From Gammaproteobacteria bacterium (GTDB lineage: Bacteria > Pseudomonadota > Gammaproteobacteria > UBA4575), in the NCBI GenBank assembly GCA_965220875.1, contig OZ244849.1:585791-649790 (forward strand): 64,000 bases of DNA. Direction: 5' to 3'. Below are positions 4,657 through 17,817 of this stretch, piece after piece. The first letter of the stretch is position 1. Each line of letters starts with the position of its first letter. The translations under genes and the position numbers were made by a program. The notes under the pieces are model-generated. The model did no database searches and was not told the origin of the DNA. It saw nothing but the letters and a program-made list of their open reading frames with translations.

Positions 4657-6201
4657 TTAGCTGCCGTTGTACGGCACCAGCAGCGAGTTGCCCGTCATCG
4701 ACCTGGGCTGGCGGATTCCCATGAGCTGCAGGATGGTGGGAGCCACGTCGCTCAGGCCCCGGCCGTTCGCCAGGTCCCAGGGCTCGCCGTCCATCACCAG
4801 GCAGGGAACCGGGTAGGTGGTGTGCTGCGTATGCGGCTCACCGGTATGCGGATCGATCATCTCGTCACAATTGCCATGGTCCGAGGTCAGCACCACGGAT
4901 ACGCCCTGCTCCTCTGCGGCATCCAGCACCCTCCCGGTATGAAAATCCATGGCTTCCAGGGCGGCAATCACGGCATCCTGCTTGGCCGTGTGGCCCACCA
5001 TGTCGGCGTTGGCAAAGTTGGTGACGATCAGGGCATAGGCCTTGTTGCGCAGGGCCTTGATCACCTCGTCGGCTACTTCCTCGGCACTCATCTCCGGCTG
5101 CAGGTCGTAGGTTGCCACCTTGGGGGAGGGTACGATCTTGCGATCCTCTCCCTCGTAGGCACCGTCGAAACCGCCGTTCAGGAAGTAGGTTACGTGAGGG
5201 TATTTTTCCGTCTCCGCACAGTGAAACTGGTGCAGCCCTGCCTTGCTGATGATTTCAGACAGGTTGGTTTCCGGCCTGCGGGGCGGAAAGGCCACGGGAC
5301 CGAGAAACCGCTTGCTGTACTTGGTCATTTTGGTAAGCCTGACCGGCCGGTACTCCGGACCCCGGTCAAAGGCGTCGAACTCCTTCTGCGCGAGCGCCTT
5401 GCTGAGCTGCAGCGGCCGGTCGCTGCGGAAATTGCAGAAGATCACCTCGGACTGGGCGGTCATGGGCTGCGCCGCATGCAGCACGGTGGGCAGGATGAAC
5501 TCGTCCGTCTCGCCCCGGGCATAGGCGTTGCGCACGGCATCCAGGGCCGTCCCCGCGCGCCTGCCCTCCAGCTGCACGAGTGCCTGCCAGGCGAGGAACG
5601 TGCGTTCCCACCGGCGGTCACGGTCCATCGCGTAATACCGCCCCATCACGGTGGCAATGGTGCCACCGGCCTGTTTCAGGTGCGGGTTGAGAATTTTGAT
5701 GTACTTTCGCACGCTCTTCGGCGGCGCATCGCGCCCGTCGGCGATGACGTGCACCAGGGGGCGGACCCCGTGCTCCTGGCACAGCTTCACCAGCGCGATG
5801 ATGTGGTTGATGTGCGAGTGCACACCGCCGTCCGACAGCAGGCCGATCAGATGCAGGTGGCCGTCGCCGTCCTCGGCTTTCTTGACGGCACGCACCAGGG
5901 GTGAGACCTCGAACAGGCTGCCGTCTGCAATGGCATCGTTGATGCGGATCAGGTCCTGCCGGATGACCGCTCCGCAGCCGATGGTCATGTGCCCGACTTC
6001 CGAGTTTCCCATCTGGCCTGCAGGCAGGCCCACCGCCTCGCCGGAGGCTTCCAGCACCGTGTGCGGATAGCGTGAGAAGTACTCGTCCAGGCGCGGAGTG
6101 CGGGCCCTCAGCACGGCATTGTTGGCCTTGCTGGGATTGACGCCGAACCCGTCCAGGATGACGAGTGCGACGCGTTTACGGATTTTTGTTTTCTTGGGCA
6201 C
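4657..6201 (-). CDS. gpmI: 2,3-bisphosphoglycerate-independent phosphoglycerate mutase
   Basis: 514 aa, iPGM-like throughout (VALVILDGFG, metal-binding His/Asp regions). Confidence 0.9.
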   Translation of the reverse strand: MPKKTKIRKRVALVILDGFGVNPSKANNAVLRARTPRLDEYFSRYPHTVLEASGEAVGLPAGQMGNSEVGHMTIGCGAVIRQDLIRINDAIADGSLFEVSPLVRAVKKAEDGDGHLHLIGLLSDGGVHSHINHIIALVKLCQEHGVRPLVHVIADGRDAPPKSVRKYIKILNPHLKQAGGTIATVMGRYYAMDRDRRWERTFLAWQALVQLEGRRAGTALDAVRNAYARGETDEFILPTVLHAAQPMTAQSEVIFCNFRSDRPLQLSKALAQKEFDAFDRGPEYRPVRLTKMTKYSKRFLGPVAFPPRRPETNLSEIISKAGLHQFHCAETEKYPHVTYFLNGGFDGAYEGEDRKIVPSPKVATYDLQPEMSAEEVADEVIKALRNKAYALIVTNFANADMVGHTAKQDAVIAALEAMDFHTGRVLDAAEEQGVSVVLTSDHGNCDEMIDPHTGEPHTQHTTYPVPCLVMDGEPWDLANGRGLSDVAPTILQLMGIRQPRSMTGNSLLVPYNGS

Positions 6202-6246
6202 TGTGAAACCGGTTGTTTCTACGCGCGCGATTATGCACCAATTGGA

Positions 6247-7167
6247 TCAGCGTGTCCCCCCGTCCTTCTCATCCCCGTCGTCTTCGGGCTTTTTGAGGGG
6301 TTCGCCTTCGCCCATTTCCTTCGCCTGTTCCTCGGCAGACAGCGGGACCTGGGACGCTTTCTTGCGCCAGGACCGCCTCGGCTTGCGGGCTGGTTTTTCC
6401 CCGGCTGCATCCTCGTCCTCCTCTAGGGACCTGGGCACCCACAGGCGCGACAGCAGCAGGCCGATCTCGAACAGCAGCCATACCGGGATGGCCAGCAGCA
6501 CCTGGGAGATCACGTCCGGCGGTGTCAGCAGCATGCCGACGATGAAGGCCACCACGATCACGTAGGGGCGCTTGGAGGCCAGCTTTTTCGGCGTGGTCAC
6601 GCCCAGCCTGACCAGCACCAGGGTCACTATCGGTACCTCGAACGCAGCCCCGAAGGCGATGAAGATCTTGATCACGAAATCCAGGTAGCGCCCGATGTCC
6701 GTCATCACCGCCACCCCTTCCGGGGCCACCCTCGTGAAGAAGCCGAACACCAGGGGGAAGACGATGAAGTACGCGAAGGCCATGCCCACGTAAAACAGGA
6801 TCGAACTGGACACGAGGAGCGGGAACACCAGCCGCTTTTCGCTGCCGTACAGGCCCGGTGCGACGAAGGCCCAGGCATGGTAGAGGATGATCGGGATGGC
6901 CAGCACGATGCTGAGCAGGAACACGAGCTTGAACGGGGTGAGGAAGGGCGAGGCCACTTCGATCGCCACCATCGAGCTGTCCTCCGGCAGGTGCGCCATC
7001 AGCGGGCCGGCCAGCCAGGCATACAGGGTGTTGGCAAACGGGAACAGGCCCAGCATGACGGCCAGCACGCTGCCCGTCACCCACAGCAGCCGGCTGCGCA
7101 GCTCGAACAGGTGCGACAGTAGGGATTCCTGCTTGGCCTCGGGGTCCCCGGAGTCAGTCGGCTTCAT
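6247..7167 (-). CDS. tatC: twin-arginine translocase subunit TatC
   Basis: N-terminus LLSHLFELRSRLL and six-TM architecture. Downstream of tatA/tatB. Confidence 0.9.
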   Translation of the reverse strand: MKPTDSGDPEAKQESLLSHLFELRSRLLWVTGSVLAVMLGLFPFANTLYAWLAGPLMAHLPEDSSMVAIEVASPFLTPFKLVFLLSIVLAIPIILYHAWAFVAPGLYGSEKRLVFPLLVSSSILFYVGMAFAYFIVFPLVFGFFTRVAPEGVAVMTDIGRYLDFVIKIFIAFGAAFEVPIVTLVLVRLGVTTPKKLASKRPYVIVVAFIVGMLLTPPDVISQVLLAIPVWLLFEIGLLLSRLWVPRSLEEDEDAAGEKPARKPRRSWRKKASQVPLSAEEQAKEMGEGEPLKKPEDDGDEKDGGTR

Positions 7168-7522
7168 TCTTTTCAGGCCCCGGCTTCACCGGTTTTTCCC
7201 TGGCGGATTCGATCTGTTCCTCGACGGCCTTGACCAGCGTGTCATCCCCGTCGTCGTCCAGCTCCTGCTCGATCTCCCGCTGCGTGCCTTTCAGGATTTC
7301 CTTCAGCTCACCGATTTCGTTCTGCTGCTTGTCCAGGATTTCCTTCAGCTCGGCCGCGCGGATCTCGGACTCGATATCCGCACGGAAGGCCTCGAACATG
7401 CGCCGGGCCTTGCCTACCCACCTTCCGGCCTGGCCCGCCAAGCGCGGCAGCTTTTCCGGCCCGACCACCAGCAGCACGACCACCATGATGAGGGTGAGCT
7501 CCCAAAAGCCGAAATCAAACAT
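7154..7522 (-). CDS. tatB: twin-arginine translocase subunit TatB
   Basis: MFDFGFWELTLIMVVVLLVVGPEKLP N-terminus, then an amphipathic helix and an acidic tail. Confidence 0.85.
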   Translation of the reverse strand: MFDFGFWELTLIMVVVLLVVGPEKLPRLAGQAGRWVGKARRMFEAFRADIESEIRAAELKEILDKQQNEIGELKEILKGTQREIEQELDDDGDDTLVKAVEEQIESAREKPVKPGPEKNEAD

Positions 7523-7534
7523 GGTTCGAGAAGG

Positions 7535-7717
7535 CTACTCTTTCGTCGAGGGCTCATCCGTCTTTGAATCTTCGGGCTCGCTTTCATCTTTCACGGACTT
7601 GCGGAAATTCTTGACCGCGCTGCCGATGTCACCACCCATGTTGCGTAGTTTCTTCGTGCCGAAGATCAGCAGTATGATCAGCAGTATGATCAGTAACTGC
7701 CAGGGGCTGATTCCCAT
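7535..7717 (-). CDS. tatA: twin-arginine translocase subunit TatA
   Basis: 60 aa: [28 protein letters not shown]. Confidence 0.9.
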
Positions 7718-7753
7718 AACGTCTACTCCCGTTCAGTAAATAAGTCTCTGCGG

Positions 7754-8083
7754 TCAACCTGCGGACTTGCGTTGGGCTTTCTCCACGAGCCCCGAGACGC
7801 CGAAACGCCCGGCCAGCTCGTCCAGTACCGCCTCGTGGCCCAGGCCCTTGTAGGCCAGCAGCACCATGCAGTGAAACCACAGGTCCGCCACCTCGTGGAC
7901 CAGGTGTTCGAGGTCCTCCCCGCCACCCGCCTCCACGGTTTCTTCCGCTTCCTCGCTGATTTTAGCAAGAATCTTCTCGAGTCCGCCTGCATACAGCCCT
8001 GCCACGTAGGACTCCCCGACCGGAGCCCCCTTGCGCTGATCCAGGATCTCGGTGATCTGGTGCAGGATATCCTCAGTGCTCAT
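7754..8083 (-). CDS. hisE: phosphoribosyl-ATP pyrophosphatase
   Basis: HisE-like (ILHQITEILDQRK...LWFHCMVLLA). Start chosen at MSTEDIL. No hisI domain is present. Confidence 0.8.
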   Translation of the reverse strand: MSTEDILHQITEILDQRKGAPVGESYVAGLYAGGLEKILAKISEEAEETVEAGGGEDLEHLVHEVADLWFHCMVLLAYKGLGHEAVLDELAGRFGVSGLVEKAQRKSAG

Positions 8084-8142
8084 TATCTTTATCCACCCGT
8101 TGTCCGCCAGCATCTACAGTACCACATGCCGGGCCCGAATCC

Positions 8143-8940
<798 letters not shown>

Positions 8941-9007
8941 GGGCGGGTGGAGGAATGTTCAGTGGTTCAGGCCGATCCCGGGACCGGCCGTTCAGCGGTG
9001 TTGCATC

Positions 9008-12504: not shown

Positions 12505-13349
12505 GACTGAATTTTGGGAGGAGTGTTGACCAATGTTTCCCGAGTGTGAATCGCTGAAAGTATACCGCAGCATACCCGTTGATCTGTCCGGATACTGATG
12601 TGCCTTTAATGCTCTCAAATCGTATGTGTGATTACTTTTACATTTCATAACACCCTGCTACAGAATTTGAAGATTCGCGGGTGTCGTGTCCGGTTTCTTT
12701 TTTGACTGACTGGTCATGACGCCTGATATTCCACCGACAATAGACTCAAGCTATGGACACGATAGCTAATACCTGTTCCTGAATGTCGATCCCGTCTACA
12801 TTACCCAGACATCGTTGACGTACCGAATGCTGACCAGTGCATGGTGTTCTGTTACCTCTTCAGCCGCAACCTGTCTGCAACCACTGGCAAGCATTCAGTG
12901 ACAGTAGCTTTCATCGTCTTCCCAGGTGCTAATTTCATTCCTTGTCCTGAAATTTCCATGCATTTCAATTGTGTAAACAGCCGTTGTCGTTCTTTGCAAG
13001 GTTTCTTAAAAGGAATGATGACGAATGGATTCATAGTGCCGGTAAGCTGTGATATGATGTATCTACCTTGTCTACAGGTTGGAGGAGCAGCACATGGGTG
13101 TTGCGTTCATGCAACGAGGCATGCCCATAAACCCGCCCGGAATGACACTAATAGCGTGTTTTATAAGCGGTTTGTTTCAGGAAACTTTCACAAAAAAGTT
13201 GTTGCAGTCTGTTTGGAGACCATGTAGATTTGGCATAAAATCATACAGGCACGCTTATCGTTTGATGCAAGTCAGGCGAGAGTGTGTATGCTTTTACTAA
13301 CGTTAGGTTAAATTCAAGGCCTATTATTTTAGGAAGGGAGCTTCGAAAG

Positions 13350-15122
13350 ATGTCTACACTATCTAAGAAATTGGTGGCGCTTTTCGCGGTCATCATATTT
13401 TCCATGGCGATGTATGGATGCGGCGGCGGCGGCAGTAGCGGCCCTGCGACAATGACGCCGACTGAACCGACTGAGCCAACTGAACCGACTGAACCGACTG
13501 AACATACTGTTGACATAGGTGGTCTCACAGTTGCAGCTGGTGAATATGAAGTTCCGGCAGGCGGCACTCTTGATGTGGGAGAGGGTGAAACCGAGGTTAC
13601 GCTTTCATGCCCAGGGGATACAGCCTGTACAGTAACAGTAGCAGATGACGGTACCGCCACTTCAACCGGTGGCGCAGTCACTGCGGCATTGTCAGCAGCT
13701 GCCATGCAAGCCATTGCTGATCGGGAAGAAGCAGAGAGAATGGCTGCTGTAGAAGCTGCTACTAAAGCGGCTGGAACGAAGAGAATGGCCATCGCGGCCG
13801 AGGCAGCGCAATCGGCTGATGCCGGTCTTGGTGGCAGTGACCATGTGAATACAGACGGCACACCTGGCAATGCAGATGATCCTTATAGCTTGGCTATCAC
13901 CCGTGACAGGGATGGAACAGAGATCAAGATTACTGATCACGGGATGACGGGCGATGATGATCCGAAGTTCACACAGGCCATGGATTTAGGTGGCGGACGC
14001 ACCATGCACACGCGCGCGATGGAAGCCGATGACGAAGGTAATGTTGAGGATGAAGTCGTGATCGTCAGCACTGACATTGAAGGGCCCAAAGGGGTAGCGT
14101 TCGCGATGTGGCAGAATGCAGCTGGCGATACGCCTCAAACACTGGCCGTCAGCAGCGTCACCGGCTCAGCTGCCGATACGGCAGCAGGCCAGACTAACAA
14201 TGCTCTGACTATCGCGGAGGACACAACTCTTACCGGAGATGCGAATACAAATCTGATGTTTGCGCGCTCCACCACGGATGGAGCTCTCAACTACACCGTC
14301 AACGACACGAGTACCGCGGGTACGGATGAGGCTTTGCACGACGGCACCTATAACGGGGCTGAGGGTACATATCGCTGCACCGGTACTACAATTTGCACCG
14401 TCACCTTCAACGACAAGGGTATGGTTGTTGGCAACACTGGTGGTTGGGTCTTCGTTCCAGATAAGGGCGCCACCTCAGACCAGCCGGACTACGACTACCT
14501 GCACTACGGCGTCTGGCTCAAGAGGACCACCGATAAAGATGGTGCAGTTACTTACAACGAGGTCGAGACCTTTGCTGGTTCATCGCTTGCTGCTTCCGAC
14601 GGGAGCGAGCTCAACTCAGTCGAAGGTAGTGCGTCGTACGAAGGTGGTGCCACGGGCGTGTATGTACACGAAGTGCGTAATCCGGACGGCACGGAAGCAT
14701 CAGCCACTTTCGGCCACTTTACTGCGGATGTCTCACTGACGGCGTATTTCGCTCAGACTGGAGATAACCCTGAAACAACAGGCGTCACCGAAGCGGGGAC
14801 TGTCGCGCCGAACTTGCTCAACACCGTCAGTGGCTCGATCAACAACTTCATGTTATCTGGGGGAGAAGCCAACACGTGGTCGGTAACCGTACAGGCCAGC
14901 CGTGCAGGTAGTGCAAACACTTTCTCCGGTACGGCCAAGGGCGGATCGCCCAGCAACGATGGGTCGATTAGCGGAACTTACCACGGCCCAACGCCTGAGA
15001 CTACGGCTACTAATGACCCTACAACTGCCAGAACGGCTCCGGGTTCGATGGTCGGCGAGTTCAATTCCTTCTTCACCAACGGCTCTGTAGCCGGTGCCTT
15101 CGGGGCGAGAAAGGACGAATGA
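13350..15122 (+). CDS. large TbpB-family surface lipoprotein with PTE repeats (candidate Slam substrate)
   Basis: Good SD (AGGAAGGGAG). Signal MSTLSKKLVALFAVIIFSMAMYGC, then a GGGGSSG tether and (PTE)x5. An internal duplicated motif CPGDTACTVTVADDG / CTGTTICTVTFNDKG. C-terminus GTYHGP...SVAGAFGARKDE is the TbpB-like barrel ending. Confidence 0.7.
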   Translation: MSTLSKKLVALFAVIIFSMAMYGCGGGGSSGPATMTPTEPTEPTEPTEPTEHTVDIGGLTVAAGEYEVPAGGTLDVGEGETEVTLSCPGDTACTVTVADDGTATSTGGAVTAALSAAAMQAIADREEAERMAAVEAATKAAGTKRMAIAAEAAQSADAGLGGSDHVNTDGTPGNADDPYSLAITRDRDGTEIKITDHGMTGDDDPKFTQAMDLGGGRTMHTRAMEADDEGNVEDEVVIVSTDIEGPKGVAFAMWQNAAGDTPQTLAVSSVTGSAADTAAGQTNNALTIAEDTTLTGDANTNLMFARSTTDGALNYTVNDTSTAGTDEALHDGTYNGAEGTYRCTGTTICTVTFNDKGMVVGNTGGWVFVPDKGATSDQPDYDYLHYGVWLKRTTDKDGAVTYNEVETFAGSSLAASDGSELNSVEGSASYEGGATGVYVHEVRNPDGTEASATFGHFTADVSLTAYFAQTGDNPETTGVTEAGTVAPNLLNTVSGSINNFMLSGGEANTWSVTVQASRAGSANTFSGTAKGGSPSNDGSISGTYHGPTPETTATNDPTTARTAPGSMVGEFNSFFTNGSVAGAFGARKDE

Positions 15123-15161
15123 TCGTTTGAAGATAGGCTGACTTCTTACTCAAGCTCCCAA

Positions 15162-15196
15162 AAGAGGGTGGCAGATTTGCCACCCTCTTTTTTTTG
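15162..15196 (+). terminator. rho-independent terminator after the lipoprotein gene
   Basis: AAAGAGGGTGGCAGATTTGCCACCCTCTTTTTTTT: a perfect 11-bp stem followed by a T-run, 40 bp after the stop. Confidence 0.55.
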
Positions 15197-15441
15197 CTCG
15201 GCAAAAAATTGGAGCCCTGTCCGAATGGTACCCCTGATCAGATGCGGCAGACAATGACATCCAGACGAAACTTCAGTCACAATGTCCCTTCCCCTGAAAC
15301 GGAAAACTATCTCCCCCTTAGAACCAACCCGTCGTTCACACATACAACAATTCAGTCTTACATGTGTAAGAAGCACACATATGCGTTGATTCATGACATG
15401 TGAACTGACCGGATACGGTTGGCAAAGGTTTTCCATCGAGG

Positions 15442-16062
15442 TCATCCAGTCCAGAGCGCAGTGAGGACAGAAGTAGTTGTAGAAGTGCTATCCGGCCAGT
15501 GCGGGTGCGCATCCCAGACGGTGAGGCGGACGGGACAGAGGTTCCAGAACTCGGTTCTTGAGTTGTCGTTAGCCCGTTCGATAATGCCGTTGATCTGTGG
15601 GCTTTTCGGTAGCAGCACGGCTAGCGGGAGGTCGAACACTTCACAGGTAGCCTTGAAGTCCGCCCGGAACTCATTGCCGTCGACCTGGACCGAGCGTAGC
15701 GGATACGGCAGGTCTTCACGGACGGCCTCAAGAAAGCGTCTGGTGTTGCGGGCCATAACCTGAGAATAGACCCGTGTCGCCATCTGTTTCCCGACGGAAC
15801 AGGTGCCTTGACTTCTTTCAGTGTGTTACCCTCGCGCAAGACCGACATGTGATCGATCTGCGCCAGTTCGCCCAGGGTGCGTGCCTTTGCACCGTACTTC
15901 CAGTTGTACAGGCTGCTCTAGGGCGCCGGCCTCGCTGCTGCCTGGAGCCCGAAGCTGGTTATAGGCTTGCAGGGTGCGGTGGCGCTCGACCGCAAACTCG
16001 GCAACGGCTTCGACCACCTTGAAGCTTTTGTACGATTGAACGCGAAGCGATTTAATATGCAT
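15442..16062 (-). mobile_element. degraded IS481-like (rve/DDE) transposase, frameshifted fragments
   Basis: Fragment 15783..15442 has FLEAVRED...VQVDGNEF...PKSPQINGIIERANDNSRTEFWN, matching the rve TDNGxEF and SPQxNGxxER motifs. Fragment 16062..15826 has HRTLQAYNQLRAP, similar to the YNxxRPH C-terminal motif. Fragments are broken by an in-frame stop and are out of order, so this is a relic. Confidence 0.55.
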
Positions 16063-16452: not shown

Positions 16453-17817
16453 ATGAAAAAAATACCGGTTAGCCGCTTTCTTGTATCCATCACTCTGCTG
16501 TCGCTGTCGGCTATGGGGACTGCATTTGCCAGCAGCGCAGAACTTCAGCCATCGCACGCAGATGAAAGCAAGGCCCGGGCACTGCTCAATAACCGGCAAT
16601 TTGACGAGGCTCTGACAATTTTACGCCCCCTGGCAAAAGCACATCCCGAGCACATCAACCTTCACTTCCTGCTCGGTCTGGCTGCCATCGAACGCTCCCG
16701 CCTGGCACAAACTTCGAAGGAAGAGCAGGAAGCCCTGCTGGATGAAGCCATTGCCACCCTGCACAGGCTACTGGTCAATCATCCAAAGCTTGAACGCGTA
16801 CGGCTTGAGCTCGCCCGTGCATTCTTCTACAAGAAAGAGGATTCCCTGTCGCGCAAGCATTTCAAGCGGGTGCTGGCTGGAGATCCACCGCCCCCCGTGG
16901 CGGAAAATATCCAGCGCTTCCTCAACGAAATCCGGGCCAGAAAGCGCTGGTCGGTGTATCTCGGCAGCACGCTCAAGCCCAGCTCCAACATCGGCCGAAA
17001 TTCCGAGACCGAGATCATCAACATTTTCGGTCTGCCCTTTCGCCGCGATGAGGTTGAAAAGAAGAAATCAGGGGTCGGTCTTTCTGTCTGGGCCGGTGGC
17101 GGCTACTGGCATCCCCTGGCCGAGCGCCTTCGGCTTCGCTTTGGCACCGATCTCGCCCGCGAGGAATACCCGGGAAAAGAGGAGGACCAGTCCTTCCTGG
17201 GAGTACACGCCGGCCCTGAATGGCTCGTCAATGCAAGAACCAGTGTCAGCCTGCTCGCCGATGCGCGGCATCTCTGGCGCATCACCTCACCCTATTACCT
17301 TGACTTCGGGGTACGCTCGGAAATCAAGCACCGGGTGAACCGGCGCCTCTGGCTGAAAGGGCAGGCCTCCTGGCATGACCGCGACTACCGGAAGCTCGAC
17401 TACCTGGATGGCTCGACCATGAATCTATCGTTGAACGGGACCTGGATCGCCTTGCCCACCGTGCGACTGGAGGGTGCCCTTGGCTATGCCGATGAGCACA
17501 CGAAATCCAAGACCTGGCGCCATGACACCCGCTGGGGCCGTATCGGCACGCTGGTGGCCCTGCCACGCGGCTTTACCGTGGGCGGCAGTGCCGAGATTCG
17601 AAGAACCCGCTACGAGGGGAACTGGTTCCCATTTACCAGCGGCGTCCCCCGCAAGGATCGCACCAATATCTATCGCGCCTCGGTATACAACCGGGCTTTC
17701 ACGCTGTACGGGTTCAGCCCTCAATTCGTGATCACCCACGAGGAAAAGGATACCAACTCGCAGGTCTACGGCTATGACAGCACCGGCGGCGAGATACGGT
17801 TCGTGCGCCAGTTCTAG
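16453..17817 (+). CDS. TPR plus DUF560-like outer-membrane beta-barrel; putative Slam surface-lipoprotein translocon
   Basis: 454 aa. Sec signal (MKKIPVSRFLVSITLLSLSAMGTAFA), about 150 aa of TPR-like helices, then about 300 aa with alternating beta-strand character ending in an aromatic C-terminus (RFVRQF). The size and architecture match Slam, and the gene sits next to a TbpB-like lipoprotein. DUF560 membership was not checked by HMM. Confidence 0.65.
   Translation: MKKIPVSRFLVSITLLSLSAMGTAFASSAELQPSHADESKARALLNNRQFDEALTILRPLAKAHPEHINLHFLLGLAAIERSRLAQTSKEEQEALLDEAIATLHRLLVNHPKLERVRLELARAFFYKKEDSLSRKHFKRVLAGDPPPPVAENIQRFLNEIRARKRWSVYLGSTLKPSSNIGRNSETEIINIFGLPFRRDEVEKKKSGVGLSVWAGGGYWHPLAERLRLRFGTDLAREEYPGKEEDQSFLGVHAGPEWLVNARTSVSLLADARHLWRITSPYYLDFGVRSEIKHRVNRRLWLKGQASWHDRDYRKLDYLDGSTMNLSLNGTWIALPTVRLEGALGYADEHTKSKTWRHDTRWGRIGTLVALPRGFTVGGSAEIRRTRYEGNWFPFTSGVPRKDRTNIYRASVYNRAFTLYGFSPQFVITHEEKDTNSQVYGYDSTGGEIRFVRQF

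Follow-up and report, generated by a model that had tools for sequence, protein, structure and literature searches.

NHBA is a lipoprotein with one C-terminal barrel and a long N-terminal region that is largely disordered and carries an Arg-rich heparin-binding motif. For TbpB, the exposed part is reported to vary strongly between alleles. Surface lipoproteins (SLPs) with the TbpB fold that are handled by Slam, the outer-membrane protein of type 11 secretion (T11SS), combine a lipobox and an adjacent DUF560/TPR Slam gene with a variable N-terminal effector region and a beta 'pedestal' that lead into an eight-stranded C-terminal barrel (Hooda et al. 2017, PMC5449769; Grossman et al. 2025, PMC12282271). 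These papers describe Slam in Proteobacteria.

Here, we analyze a gene in the window, the whole 64-kb stretch of DNA under study, whose product has the predicted features of such SLPs. Judged from predicted structure and gene context, the product is probably a single-lobed SLP and the cargo of the neighboring Slam outer-membrane protein. For the window itself, the gain is chiefly one of annotation: an open reading frame without a Pfam family can be labeled as a surface lipoprotein and cargo of Slam/T11SS, and there is no further need for the idea of a bilobed duplication.

A lipoprotein gene beside a Slam gene

The open reading frame spans 13284-15122 on the + strand, with an ATG at 13350 and a GTG upstream of it as an alternative start. 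The features that define the gene and its surroundings are:

13332..13340, + strand: Shine-Dalgarno-like GGAAGGGAG, 9 nt 5' of the ATG, read from the sequence
13350..15122, + strand: surface lipoprotein coding sequence, 590 aa, stop codon included, from the ORF list and translation
13350..13421, + strand: lipoprotein signal peptide, aa 1-24, with a KK n-region, a hydrophobic core and the lipobox A-M-Y-G-C
15160..15201, + strand: intrinsic terminator with a 14-bp stem, a 4-nt loop and a T-run
15442..15783, - strand: integrase/IS remnant, with a weak similarity to rve_3 (E 0.029) that falls short of the Pfam threshold
16453..17817, + strand: Slam/T11SS outer-membrane protein, 454 aa, with a signal peptide, a TPR N-domain and a DUF560 barrel

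The product begins with MSTLSKKLVALFAVIIFSMAMYG, followed by Cys24 at the lipobox position (codon 13419-13421) and then by GGGG; family members commonly have a run of Gly behind this Cys. The N-terminus reads as a Sec signal peptide closed by the Cys of a lipobox, the latter judged by eye, and aa 2-21 form a helix in the AlphaFold prediction. Homologues have LAGC, LSGC or MYGC at the same position. The Tyr at lipobox position -2 is atypical. The mature protein is 14.8% Thr, 13.4% Ala, 13.1% Gly and 7.8% Asp, with 81 Asp and Glu residues against 25 Lys and Arg, which agrees with a preliminary description of the gene as encoding a highly acidic protein rich in Thr, Gly and Asp; the protein strings quoted in that description occur in the translation exactly as given.

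Searches by sequence matched the 590-aa protein to none of the Pfam families at E<=1 and to nothing relevant in NCBIfam, and the models by which barrels of this kind are named (the Pfam TbpB barrel, the fHbp/lipoprotein C domain) did not match it. Comparison with PDB sequences, by phmmer and with a family profile, returned nothing meaningful; matches to myosin-binding protein C and to a capsid protein were set aside as chance. Assignment to the Slam cargo is therefore made at the level of fold and context only. A tblastn search of the 64-kb window found no paralogue, and look-ups by exact sequence, of the window protein from either start codon and of P0002, returned no contig. With 54-57% GC the gene lies only a little under its flanks (59-65%), and this says nothing on a foreign origin.

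The context is a Slam gene 1.3 kb downstream, whose product matches PF04575 (SlipAM) over profile positions 1-288 of 288 (E 4.9e-22) and TPR_16 (E 6e-9). Together with the lipobox, this gene bears out the earlier labeling of the lipoprotein as 'cargo'. Between the two genes lie the terminator, whose palindrome is conserved in three related loci (L039, L040 and L011), and the IS remnant, in a region 80-90% identical in relatives; given this strong terminator and the remnant, the SLP and Slam genes are not expected to be co-transcribed. The gene order hisB-dtd-pip-SLP-Slam-methyltransferase-trkH-trkA is shared by the window and the syntenic loci L039 and L041. No TonB-dependent receptor is found among the called neighbors in these three loci, and no metal or haem uptake genes flank the window locus or its relatives. 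Across the family, a Slam homologue lies within ~6 kb of an SLP homologue, mostly directly downstream, in 24 of 37 genome loci drawn from Gamma- and Alphaproteobacteria, Nitrospirales and Binatia. Paralogues are mostly not adjacent to a Slam gene.

Domain architecture and fold

Following the signal peptide, the protein divides into a tether, a series of modules and a C-terminal barrel:

13422..13457, + strand: Gly/Ser tether GGGGSSGPATMT, aa 25-36, pLDDT <50
13458..13502, + strand: (PTE)5, aa 37-51, five 9-bp units, from Tandem Repeats Finder and the sequence
13503..13694, + strand: small N-terminal module made up of seven short beta strands only, aa 52-115, AlphaFold pLDDT 95-97
13599..13673, + strand: hairpin motif copy 1, aa 84-108, TLS-C87-PGDTA-C93-TVTVADDGTATSTGG, with strands 83-86 and 93-97 flanking the Cys pair in the model
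13695..13808, + strand: long single alpha-helix, aa 116-153, 38 residues, AlphaFold pLDDT ~96
13809..14099, + strand: flexible linker, aa 154-178, and conserved six-strand beta region, aa 179-250
14100..14354, + strand: hypervariable block, aa 251-335, mostly loops, with lower model confidence
14367..14441, + strand: hairpin motif copy 2, aa 340-364, TYR-C343-TGTTI-C349-TVTFNDKGMVVGNTG, in the family core
14445..14582, + strand: four-strand handle/pedestal sheet, aa 366-411, with GWxFxPD, DYLHYGxWL and YNEVETFAGSS
14628..15113, + strand: C-terminal eight-stranded barrel, aa 427-588, eight long strands in both AlphaFold models

The full AlphaFold model has a pLDDT of 89.1 and a pTM of 0.82, and a separate model of the C-terminal 266 aa has a pLDDT of 90.2. 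The N-terminal module of ~65 aa is optional or swappable: many family members lack it or have it replaced, and P0001 and P0003 carry two copies. The helix that follows is 11 residues shorter in the ortholog L041. The beta region carries the motifs RDRxGT, GDDDPKF, MDLGGGxTMHxR and ADDxGNV, and the fold given here for aa 155-335 is a model-based assignment. In the predicted model, a handle/pedestal sheet stands ahead of the barrel, as in known T11SS cargo; its strands (366-370, 375-378, 384-394 and 400-411) form a highly conserved region in which W366, F368, P370, Y386, G387 and W389 are invariant.

When the C-terminal model was searched with Foldseek, all of the top 20 matches were known Slam cargo (NHBA, TbpB, LbpB, fHbp and hemophilin), each with probability 1.00. 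The best was the NHBA C-domain (6cuj_B, E 1.8e-6, target-normalized TM 0.55), followed among others by the TbpB C-lobe (5kkx_A), fHbp (8bk2_C, target-normalized TM 0.54), LbpB and hemophilin (6om5); the TM-scores are modest (0.41-0.55, target-normalized) and refer to predicted models.

This result bears on the proposal that the protein is an ordinary outer-membrane lipoprotein that faces the periplasm and lies near a Slam gene by coincidence. The terminator and IS remnant that separate the two genes, the many paralogues without an adjacent Slam gene, and the absence of any sequence match to known SLP families would all fit such a protein. We nonetheless regard it as highly improbable, because the pairing with Slam recurs across several bacterial groups, because the top of the fold search for the C-terminal domain holds known Slam cargo only, and because exposed proteins typically have a long spacer and a hypervariable mosaic of this kind.

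A recurrent Cys-bracketed hairpin rather than a duplicated lobe

The mature protein has only four Cys residues, arranged as two Cx5C pairs within the related motifs C87-PGDTA-C93-TVTVADDG and C343-TGTTI-C349-TVTFNDKG. Counted from the ATG these lie at aa 87-102 and 343-358, and counted from the upstream GTG at aa 109-124 and 365-380. Both motifs are conserved across the family, and C343 and C349 are invariant in alignments of 91 and of 100 sequences. Self-BLASTP detects no internal repeat, and the hairpin is visible by profile-profile comparison only: copy 1 matches copy 2 with a probability of 85-94% (E 8e-8 to 6e-6), and a control with the sequence reversed gives E 0.095. The preliminary description had noticed a duplicated Cys motif of this kind and had made it depend on an internal repeat that profile-profile self-comparison can detect. 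The observation stands in substance, in that there are two related copies whose likeness is not due to chance; its details need adjustment, since the second copy ends in DKG rather than DDG and the position given for it, about residue 385, is somewhat off.

The same description took the two motifs as marks of an internal domain duplication and of the bilobed, TbpB-type design with two handle-barrel lobes. Several observations would fit such a design: whole TbpB chains head the Foldseek list for the full-length model, with alignments of 458-580 columns, the two Cys motifs are truly related, and aa 179-362 are rich in beta structure in the model. The detectable repeat, however, covers only 22-25 residues (aa 84-108 against aa 340-364), the length of a Cys-bracketed beta-hairpin and not of a lobe, and motif 1 sits in the 65-aa module that many members omit, replace or duplicate. 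A profile comparison of aa 155-365 with the barrel gives a probability of 0.1%, that is, no similarity, and the Pfam TbpB barrel model matches neither half of the protein. Foldseek E-values to TbpB are 3e-4 to 8e-4 for the C-terminal 266 aa and 1e-4 to 2e-4 for the full model, so that the N-terminal 324 residues add less than a tenfold gain, which is not as expected of a second handle-barrel lobe. A TonB-dependent partner gene is also absent nearby. We therefore consider a bilobed protein very unlikely. What survives of the TbpB comparison is the TbpB-like fold of the C-terminal part: structure prediction, which had been suggested as a check on the two lobes, gives a single recognizable eight-strand barrel, at the C-terminus.

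In place of a lobe duplication, we propose that the duplicated motif is a recurrent beta-hairpin of ~25 residues with a Cys-bracketed turn, most likely held by a disulfide staple, of which one copy lies in the optional N-terminal module and the other in the invariant core. A disulfide in each modeled hairpin is plausible because the Cys residues are always paired, bracket a beta-turn, and belong to an extracytoplasmic protein. The Cys pairs were also considered as a metal site, and this was rejected: there are two Cys per site, outside the cytoplasm, bracketing a hairpin turn.

The (PTE)5 tether

After CGGGGSSGPATMT, the repeat that precedes the N-terminal module reads PTEPTEPTEPTEPTE over aa 37-51 (nt 13458-13502). 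Tandem Repeats Finder reports a period of 9, 5.1 copies, 89% matches and a score of 78, and 43 of the 45 nt agree with the consensus unit; unit 2 ends in GAG and unit 3 starts with CCA, giving two synonymous differences, so the DNA repeat is not the 'perfect' one first described. The Gly/Ser and (PTE)5 stretch is predicted by AlphaFold to be disordered (pLDDT 43-65), with aa 21-39 forming the disordered stretch of the full model, and this fits the earlier suggestion of a flexible stalk.

It had further been suggested that the repeat is prone to slippage and variable in length, and a comparison of copy number in relatives was put forward as a check. We found five units in the window and exactly five in L041, the only ortholog with the repeat, where the synonymous variants fall in other units. 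Over aa 33-52 the two alleles differ with pS 0.48 and dN/dS 0.09, and synonymous divergence is ~0.8. P0121 and P0122 share the same N-module and join it to a non-repetitive, Pro-rich tether of 17 aa, PDPEPDPMPMPDPDPTP, of nearly equal length. Tethers differ between relatives by replacement of the whole segment, and no gain or loss of units is seen.

These data speak to the proposal that (PTE)5 is a contingency locus, in which slipped-strand changes of 9-bp units vary stalk length within populations. A five-unit tandem repeat of 9 bp is the kind of tract in which this could happen, the GAG and CCA variants lie one unit further along in L041 and could reflect unit turnover, and in other subgroups of the family the copy number of VEPTP or PGPTVEV differs between related proteins. 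Against this, copy number is equal in the only ortholog that carries the repeat despite a pS of 0.48, the repeat is short and imperfect, and in other alleles a tether of about this length is not repetitive at all. Unit changes would also be in-frame, and therefore could not switch expression. Two metagenome scans, with probes from the 3' flank of the repeat and from the end of the signal-peptide coding region, found no strain variants. Length variation by slippage thus appears to have little chance of being the explanation. PT and PTD repeats have been described in other T11SS cargo (PMC12282271), and by analogy we propose that (PTE)5 is most likely a stiff, hydrophilic and length-constrained spacer.

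Mosaic alleles in a widespread family

Comparison with the two syntenic loci reveals block-wise changes in similarity along the gene. Positions 13301-13400 are 100% identical in L039 and L041. Against L039, identity then falls to 41-76% from ~13445 to the stop codon and rises to 83-90% beyond it; against L041, identity switches between 90-98% and 49-70% from block to block. At synonymous sites, some blocks have diverged by 0.09-0.12, whereas others range from 0.8 to saturation: the alleles of L041 and the window, for example, share 96% identity over aa 156-250, with a synonymous divergence of 0.11 over aa 151-250. In the hypervariable block, nucleotide identity is 49-60% to L041 and 41-51% to L039, compared to 85-100% in the flanks, and synonymous sites are saturated; the best protein matches to this block are at 62-68%, one of them from Nitrospirales. 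The nearest relatives differ from segment to segment. Read from these sequence comparisons, the mature region is a mosaic whose segments have been exchanged with divergent family members, while the signal peptide and flanks were kept. An assembly artefact was considered and rejected, as the flanks are common to three independent assemblies and the breaks fall at or near predicted domain boundaries, both between the signal peptide and the mature region and between structured blocks.

The family to which these segments belong has at least 522 homologues in a 90%-identity protein database and at least 1366 clusters at 50% identity; it has no Pfam model, and the source records give it no informative name. 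Slam-SLP pairs occur in closed Nitrospirales chromosomes and also in Binatia MAGs, and thus outside the Proteobacteria of the cited literature. The hosts appear to be sponge symbionts, and a literature search combining Slam or surface lipoprotein assembly with sponge returned nothing relevant. Core identity across phyla (57-59%) is no lower than that to the ortholog found at the corresponding position of a related gammaproteobacterium (53%). Based on this inter-phylum identity, the Nitrospirales pairs and the Nitrospirales relative of the variable block, we tentatively raise the possibility, which we do not hold to be the likelier outcome, of a horizontally shared, recombination-diversified cargo family that circulates with Slam among distant sponge symbionts (Gamma- and Alphaproteobacteria, Nitrospirales, Binatia and Nitrospinota) as a variable host- or phage-facing determinant. 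If true, type 11 secretion would reach beyond the Proteobacteria, and a new class of symbiosis factor would be indicated.

Proposed export and role

By extension from TbpB, fHbp and related cargo, the SLP would be exported by Sec and then lipidated at Cys24, transferred to the outer membrane by Lol, and exposed on the cell surface in a Slam-dependent manner, with the C-terminal eight-stranded barrel as the part that Slam would handle. Moving outward from the anchor, the displayed protein would consist of a disordered spacer of ~27 residues (GGGGSSGPATMT plus (PTE)5), the beta module and the 38-residue helix, and beyond the helix the conserved beta region, the loop-rich hypervariable block, the four-strand pedestal and the barrel.

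The mosaic alleles suggest that, in the sponge-symbiont habitat, diversifying pressure acts on a protein exposed at the surface for binding or recognition. Mosaics that keep the signal peptide and barrel are typical of exposed proteins, making this SLP a candidate host or phage interaction factor in sponge symbionts. A protein using the same export route could instead capture nutrients, acting like a hemophore or metallophore on a lipid anchor, as hemophilin, HphA or TbpB do in binding their ligands. Several characterized Slam cargoes bind iron carriers or haem (PMC12282271), the fold search lists TbpB, LbpB and the haemophore hemophilin (6om5), and H220 and H456 are nearly invariant alongside conserved acidic motifs. 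Yet TonB-dependent receptor and metal or haem uptake genes are absent at the locus and in relatives, and lipidation sets the protein apart from group 1 haemophilin-like cargo, most of which is soluble (PMC12282271). NHBA, the TbpB C-lobe and fHbp all match better than hemophilin does, and block-wise replacement between close relatives would be unexpected for a surface that binds one fixed small ligand. We thus judge nutrient capture unlikely, though a possibility of some weight, and on these patterns of sequence and gene content we prefer a role directed at host or phage to one in nutrient uptake coupled to TonB.

Comparison with known systems

With TbpB and LbpB, the window protein shares a lipid anchor, a flexible anchor peptide and, as reported for TbpB, an exposed part that varies strongly between alleles, and their C-lobe handle-barrel is among its best structural matches. 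It has no sequence similarity to them. TbpB and LbpB are bilobed and are accompanied by the gene for a TonB-dependent receptor of the TbpA/LbpA type, whereas the window protein has one recognizable barrel and no such gene nearby. The C-terminal barrel of NHBA (PDB 6cuj, 2lfu) is the best single fold match (E 1.8e-6, TM 0.55); in contrast to NHBA, the window protein is folded over most of its length and strongly acidic (Asp plus Glu 81, Lys plus Arg 25). fHbp and hemophilin/HphA follow the same plan of one N-terminal beta domain and one C-terminal barrel, but the window protein, at 590 aa, is much larger and carries extra modules. It is also set apart from the soluble hemophilin/HphA proteins, which have an adjacent TonB-dependent receptor, by its lipobox and lipidation, by the absence of such a receptor nearby and by the lack of haem-uptake neighbors. 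Predicted T11SS cargo lipoproteins of Psychrobacter and Sphingomonas have the same kind of repeat, a tripeptide of Pro, Thr and an acidic residue that follows the signal peptide directly, with ~12 PTD repeats and two or three barrels in place of the five PTE units and one barrel found here (PMC12282271).

With the TbpB-fold Slam/T11SS SLPs, the window protein shares its lipobox, its adjacent DUF560/TPR Slam gene, its eight-stranded barrel and pedestal, and a variable N-terminal effector region. It differs from them in lacking a match to their Pfam and NCBIfam naming models, in the hosts of its family, which are sponge-symbiont MAGs that include Nitrospirales and Binatia, and in its new N-terminal parts, the Cys-hairpin module and the long helix, and would as such add a new architecture to the catalog of T11SS cargo.

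Results

The SLP gene and its sequence

The predicted surface lipoprotein (SLP) gene occupies an open reading frame (ORF) at 13284-15122 (+), with an ATG at 13350 and the ribosome-binding site GGAAGGGAG 9 nt upstream. It lies ahead of a gene for Slam, the outer-membrane protein of type 11 secretion (T11SS):

15160-15201 (+): intrinsic terminator, 14-bp stem with 7 G-C pairs and a T-run, 38 nt past the SLP stop codon
15442-15783, also 15146-15445 (-): 113-aa ORF with a weak rve_3 integrase-core match (E 0.029)
16453-17817 (+): Slam, 454 aa, matching the whole 288-position profile of PF04575 (SlipAM; E 4.9e-22), with TPR repeats in front

The terminator palindrome is conserved in the related loci L039, L040 and L011, and its strength implies that the cargo gene and Slam are separate transcription units. 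The minus-strand sequence between them, whose rve_3 match falls below the Pfam cut-off, has the appearance of an old IS remnant. The region is 80-90% identical in L039 and in L041, a locus from a close relative, so the insertion is not recent. On the other side of the SLP gene, the 700-bp spacer behind pip (12650-13350) is AT-rich (45-46% GC versus ~60% in the flanks), and its identity to L039 climbs from 73-78% at 12701-13000 to 94-100% near the SLP start. A 179-aa gene without Pfam matches is called there in L039; the window has only a 128-aa ORF (12841-13227) without a family match.

From its ATG, SLP comprises 590 aa and begins MSTLSKKLVALFAVIIFSMAMYG-C24-GGGGSSGPATMT-(PTE)5-HTV. The mature protein is rich in Thr, Ala, Gly and Asp and strongly acidic (81 D+E versus 25 K+R); Pfam has no family that matches it at E<=1, and NCBIfam gave no relevant match. 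The PTE tract is encoded at 13458-13503 by a 9-bp repeat (5.1 copies, 89% matches by Tandem Repeats Finder) with units, in order, CCGACTGAA, CCGACTGAG, CCAACTGAA, CCGACTGAA and CCGACTGAA. Besides the lipobox Cys, SLP contains four cysteines, as two Cx5C pairs:

Copy 1: C87PGDTAC93TVTVADDG
Copy 2: C343TGTTIC349TVTFNDKG

The preliminary description had quoted both motifs exactly, and its sequence observation stands apart from two details: the DNA repeat is not "perfect", since two synonymous differences separate its five units, and the second motif lies at C343/C349, not at about residue 385.

Predicted structure and internal repeat

Based on 91 family sequences, a full-length AlphaFold model (mean pLDDT 89.1, pTM 0.82) divides SLP as follows:

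aa 2-21: signal-peptide helix
aa 21-50: disordered tether (pLDDT <50 in aa 21-39, then 43-65 as far as aa 50)
aa 51-114: small seven-strand module (N-module)
aa 116-153: single long helix, then a flexible linker
aa 179-250: conserved six-strand beta region
aa 251-330: loop-rich stretch of lower confidence
aa 329-362: hairpins
aa 366-411: four-strand sheet
aa 427-588: eight long strands

Foldseek searches of the PDB with this model place TbpB on top (E 1e-4, probability 0.97-0.99), in a list that also holds the TbpB C-lobe, hemophilin and the NHBA barrel. With a separate model covering aa 325-590 (pLDDT 90.2), the top 20 matches, each at probability 1.00, are exclusively known Slam cargo, including the NHBA C-domain (6cuj_B, E 1.8e-6, target-normalised TM 0.55), the TbpB C-lobe (5kkx_A, E 6e-5), fHbp (8bk2_C, target-normalised TM 0.54), whole TbpBs, the LbpB N-lobe and hemophilin (6om5). 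These models predict a TbpB-type C-terminal barrel.

The two Cys motifs had been read as an internal domain duplication giving two TbpB-like lobes, and only a small part of this holds. BLASTP of SLP against itself finds no internal repeat. Profile-profile comparison of the N-module (aa 50-115) with the core aligns a single pair of segments, aa 84-108 with aa 340-364 (22-25 columns, probability 85-94%, E 8e-8 to 6e-6, compared with E 0.095 for a reversed-sequence control), and a longer alignment, when forced, gains nothing but zero-confidence columns. The duplicated element is a beta-hairpin of ~25 residues with a pair of Cys closing its turn; in the AlphaFold model both copies share the same spacing of strand, CxxxxxC, strand and two more short strands. 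Both C343 and C349 are retained without exception in alignments of 91 and of 100 sequences, and the N-module cysteines always occur together, separated by 3-8 residues. Nothing points to a second lobe: aa 155-365 do not resemble the barrel (probability 0.1%), and Foldseek E-values to TbpB for the whole protein (1.1e-4 to 3.3e-4) are hardly better than those for the C-terminal 266 residues (3.3e-4 to 7.9e-4), so the N-terminal 324 residues do not behave as a second lobe would. Having one lobe and no receptor partner, SLP is not a TbpB.

Length of the PTE tether

Two metagenome scans returned no near-identical strain. In the syntenic L041, an intact ORF (L041:7608-9335) encodes MPTEPTEPTEPTEPTEHMVD, again five units; compared with the window, its synonymous GAG and CCA variants are displaced downstream by one unit. 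Over aa 33-52, 48% of synonymous and 6.6% of non-synonymous sites differ (dN/dS 0.09), and this comparison indicates that the peptide and its length were retained while the DNA drifted. P0121 and P0122, family proteins with the same N-module and truncated ORFs, carry PDPEPDPMPMPDPDPTP at this position (17 aa versus 15 aa). Related proteins of other subgroups differ in how many VEPTP or PGPTVEV units they have, so tether repeats can change over evolutionary time. The proposal of a slippage-prone, length-variable tract is largely not borne out; the sequence evidence favours (PTE)5 as a length-constrained spacer instead of a slippage hot spot.

Mosaic alleles at a conserved locus

The order hisB-dtd-pip-[SLP]-Slam-methyltransferase-trkH-trkA is common to the window, L039, L040, L041, L011 and L037. 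Against L039 the flanks are 85-100% identical, and 13301-13400, with the signal peptide and ribosome-binding site, does not differ at all (100% identity); identity drops at ~13445, just ahead of the PTE tract, to 41-76% through the stop codon and returns to 83-90% right after it. Aligned with L041, the SLP gene reads as a mosaic, and synonymous divergence tracks the same blocks as nucleotide identity.

Divergence of the SLP gene from L041
13401-13800: identity 70-89%
13801-14100: identity 90-98%
14101-14450: identity 49-70%
14501-15100: identity 91-97%
aa 1-32: dS 0.09
aa 33-150: dS 0.8-1.2
aa 151-250: dS 0.11
aa 251-367: dS saturated
aa 368-590: dS 0.12

A tenfold change in dS between blocks of a single gene indicates recombination with divergent family members and not drift by point mutation. 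The nearest relative likewise differs by segment: for aa 156-250 and the barrel it is the L041 allele P0005 (96% and 93%), and for aa 251-335 the best matches reach only 62-68%, among them P0031 from a Nitrospirales chromosome (64%). Over aa 251-318 the syntenic alleles P0049 (L039) and P0005 reach 26% and 41%.

The positional ortholog in a Thiotrichales MAG (L037:6001-7293) matches SLP in three frames (6025-6405, 6426-6809 and 6808-7293), so either the gene is a pseudogene with frameshifts or the assembly contains errors. P0121 and P0122 are N-terminal ORFs that are truncated as well and finish in out-of-frame sequence.

A large family paired with Slam

SLP has at least 522 homologues in a 90%-identity protein database, none with an informative name and only one with a precomputed Pfam match; at 50% identity there are at least 1366 clusters at E<=1e-3 and 840 at E<=1e-10. 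The conserved core spans aa ~135-590, and the segment between lipobox and core is modular: some members carry the same 65-aa module with its Cys-bracketed hairpin (two copies in P0001 and P0003), others a CPEGQxGTPPNC mini-loop, and others 300-450 aa of helical repeats. Behind the lipobox Cys there is nearly always a Gly run and then P/T/E/D-rich low-complexity sequence, with exact tandem peptide repeats in only 7 of 121 proteins. Cys pairs also occur in other N-terminal modules (P0025, P0033 and P0035, of ~900 aa; P0049, P0055 and P0101-P0104), one type having four or five helical repeats LVDAAMCTxGTxxCVxAHQALVDA and another the mini-loop. Quite different mature regions follow one and the same signal peptide, MSTLSKKLVA...MYGC.

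Genome matches come from MAGs labelled Gammaproteobacteria, Thiotrichales, Alphaproteobacteria, Nitrospirales/Nitrospira, Binatia, Nitrospinota and Deltaproteobacteria, including several closed chromosomes. The SB06xx series derives from the sponge Ircinia ramosa, and the remaining labelled series are presumably sponge-derived too. In 24 of 37 loci a Slam homologue lies a few hundred bases to ~6 kb from the SLP homologue, mostly directly downstream. Pairs outside Proteobacteria, some on closed chromosomes, occur in Nitrospira/Nitrospirales (L006, L008, L009, L014) and Binatia (L012, L038); on Nitrospirales chromosome OZ241988.1, SLP (L006:5797-7356, lipobox LAGC) is followed by Slam (7454-8962). 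A second Slam homologue lies upstream in both L006 and L014. Several genomes contain multiple paralogues at scattered sites, mostly without a Slam neighbour; the gammaproteobacterial MAG CBDBDH01 has at least five (L001/L004, L002, L003, L005, L011), of which only L011 adjoins Slam, suggesting that several dispersed cargo genes there share one Slam.

Discussion

By fold and gene context, SLP has the defining features of Slam/T11SS-dependent surface lipoproteins; sequence models for this class do not recognise it. Established Slam cargo undergo Sec export, lipidation, Lol transfer and Slam-mediated surface exposure, with the barrel in targeting (PMC5449769, PMC9090332, PMC12282271). By analogy, we propose that SLP would be exported by Sec, lipidated at Cys24, transferred by Lol and exposed on the surface by Slam, with targeting through its barrel. 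The G/S-(PTE)5 stretch may be a spacer lifting the folded part off the membrane, and the loop-rich block at aa 251-335 a variable interaction surface. The obvious reading of the Cx5C pairs in an extracytoplasmic protein is as putative disulfide staples, here of exposed hairpins.

What the protein would do at the surface is the weakest part of our argument. A nutrient role like that of TbpB or a hemophore would be one reading of this fold; the absence of a nearby TonB-dependent receptor, the block-wise replacement of alleles and the multiple paralogues in symbiont genomes argue against it, and together favour a putative host- or phage-facing role.

Three aspects go beyond routine: the family is large and anonymous, a conserved chromosomal site carries a recombinational mosaic, and sponge symbionts outside the Proteobacteria have the family paired with Slam, a pairing that we found described in no paper in our literature search. 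In its overall design, SLP resembles known systems. T11SS cargo combine a barrel, a pedestal and a variable effector, and the SLP model shows this plan (PMC12282271, PMC5449769). T11SS cargo with Pro-Thr-type repeats after the signal peptide are likewise already known (PMC12282271), and SLP carries (PTE)5 at that position.
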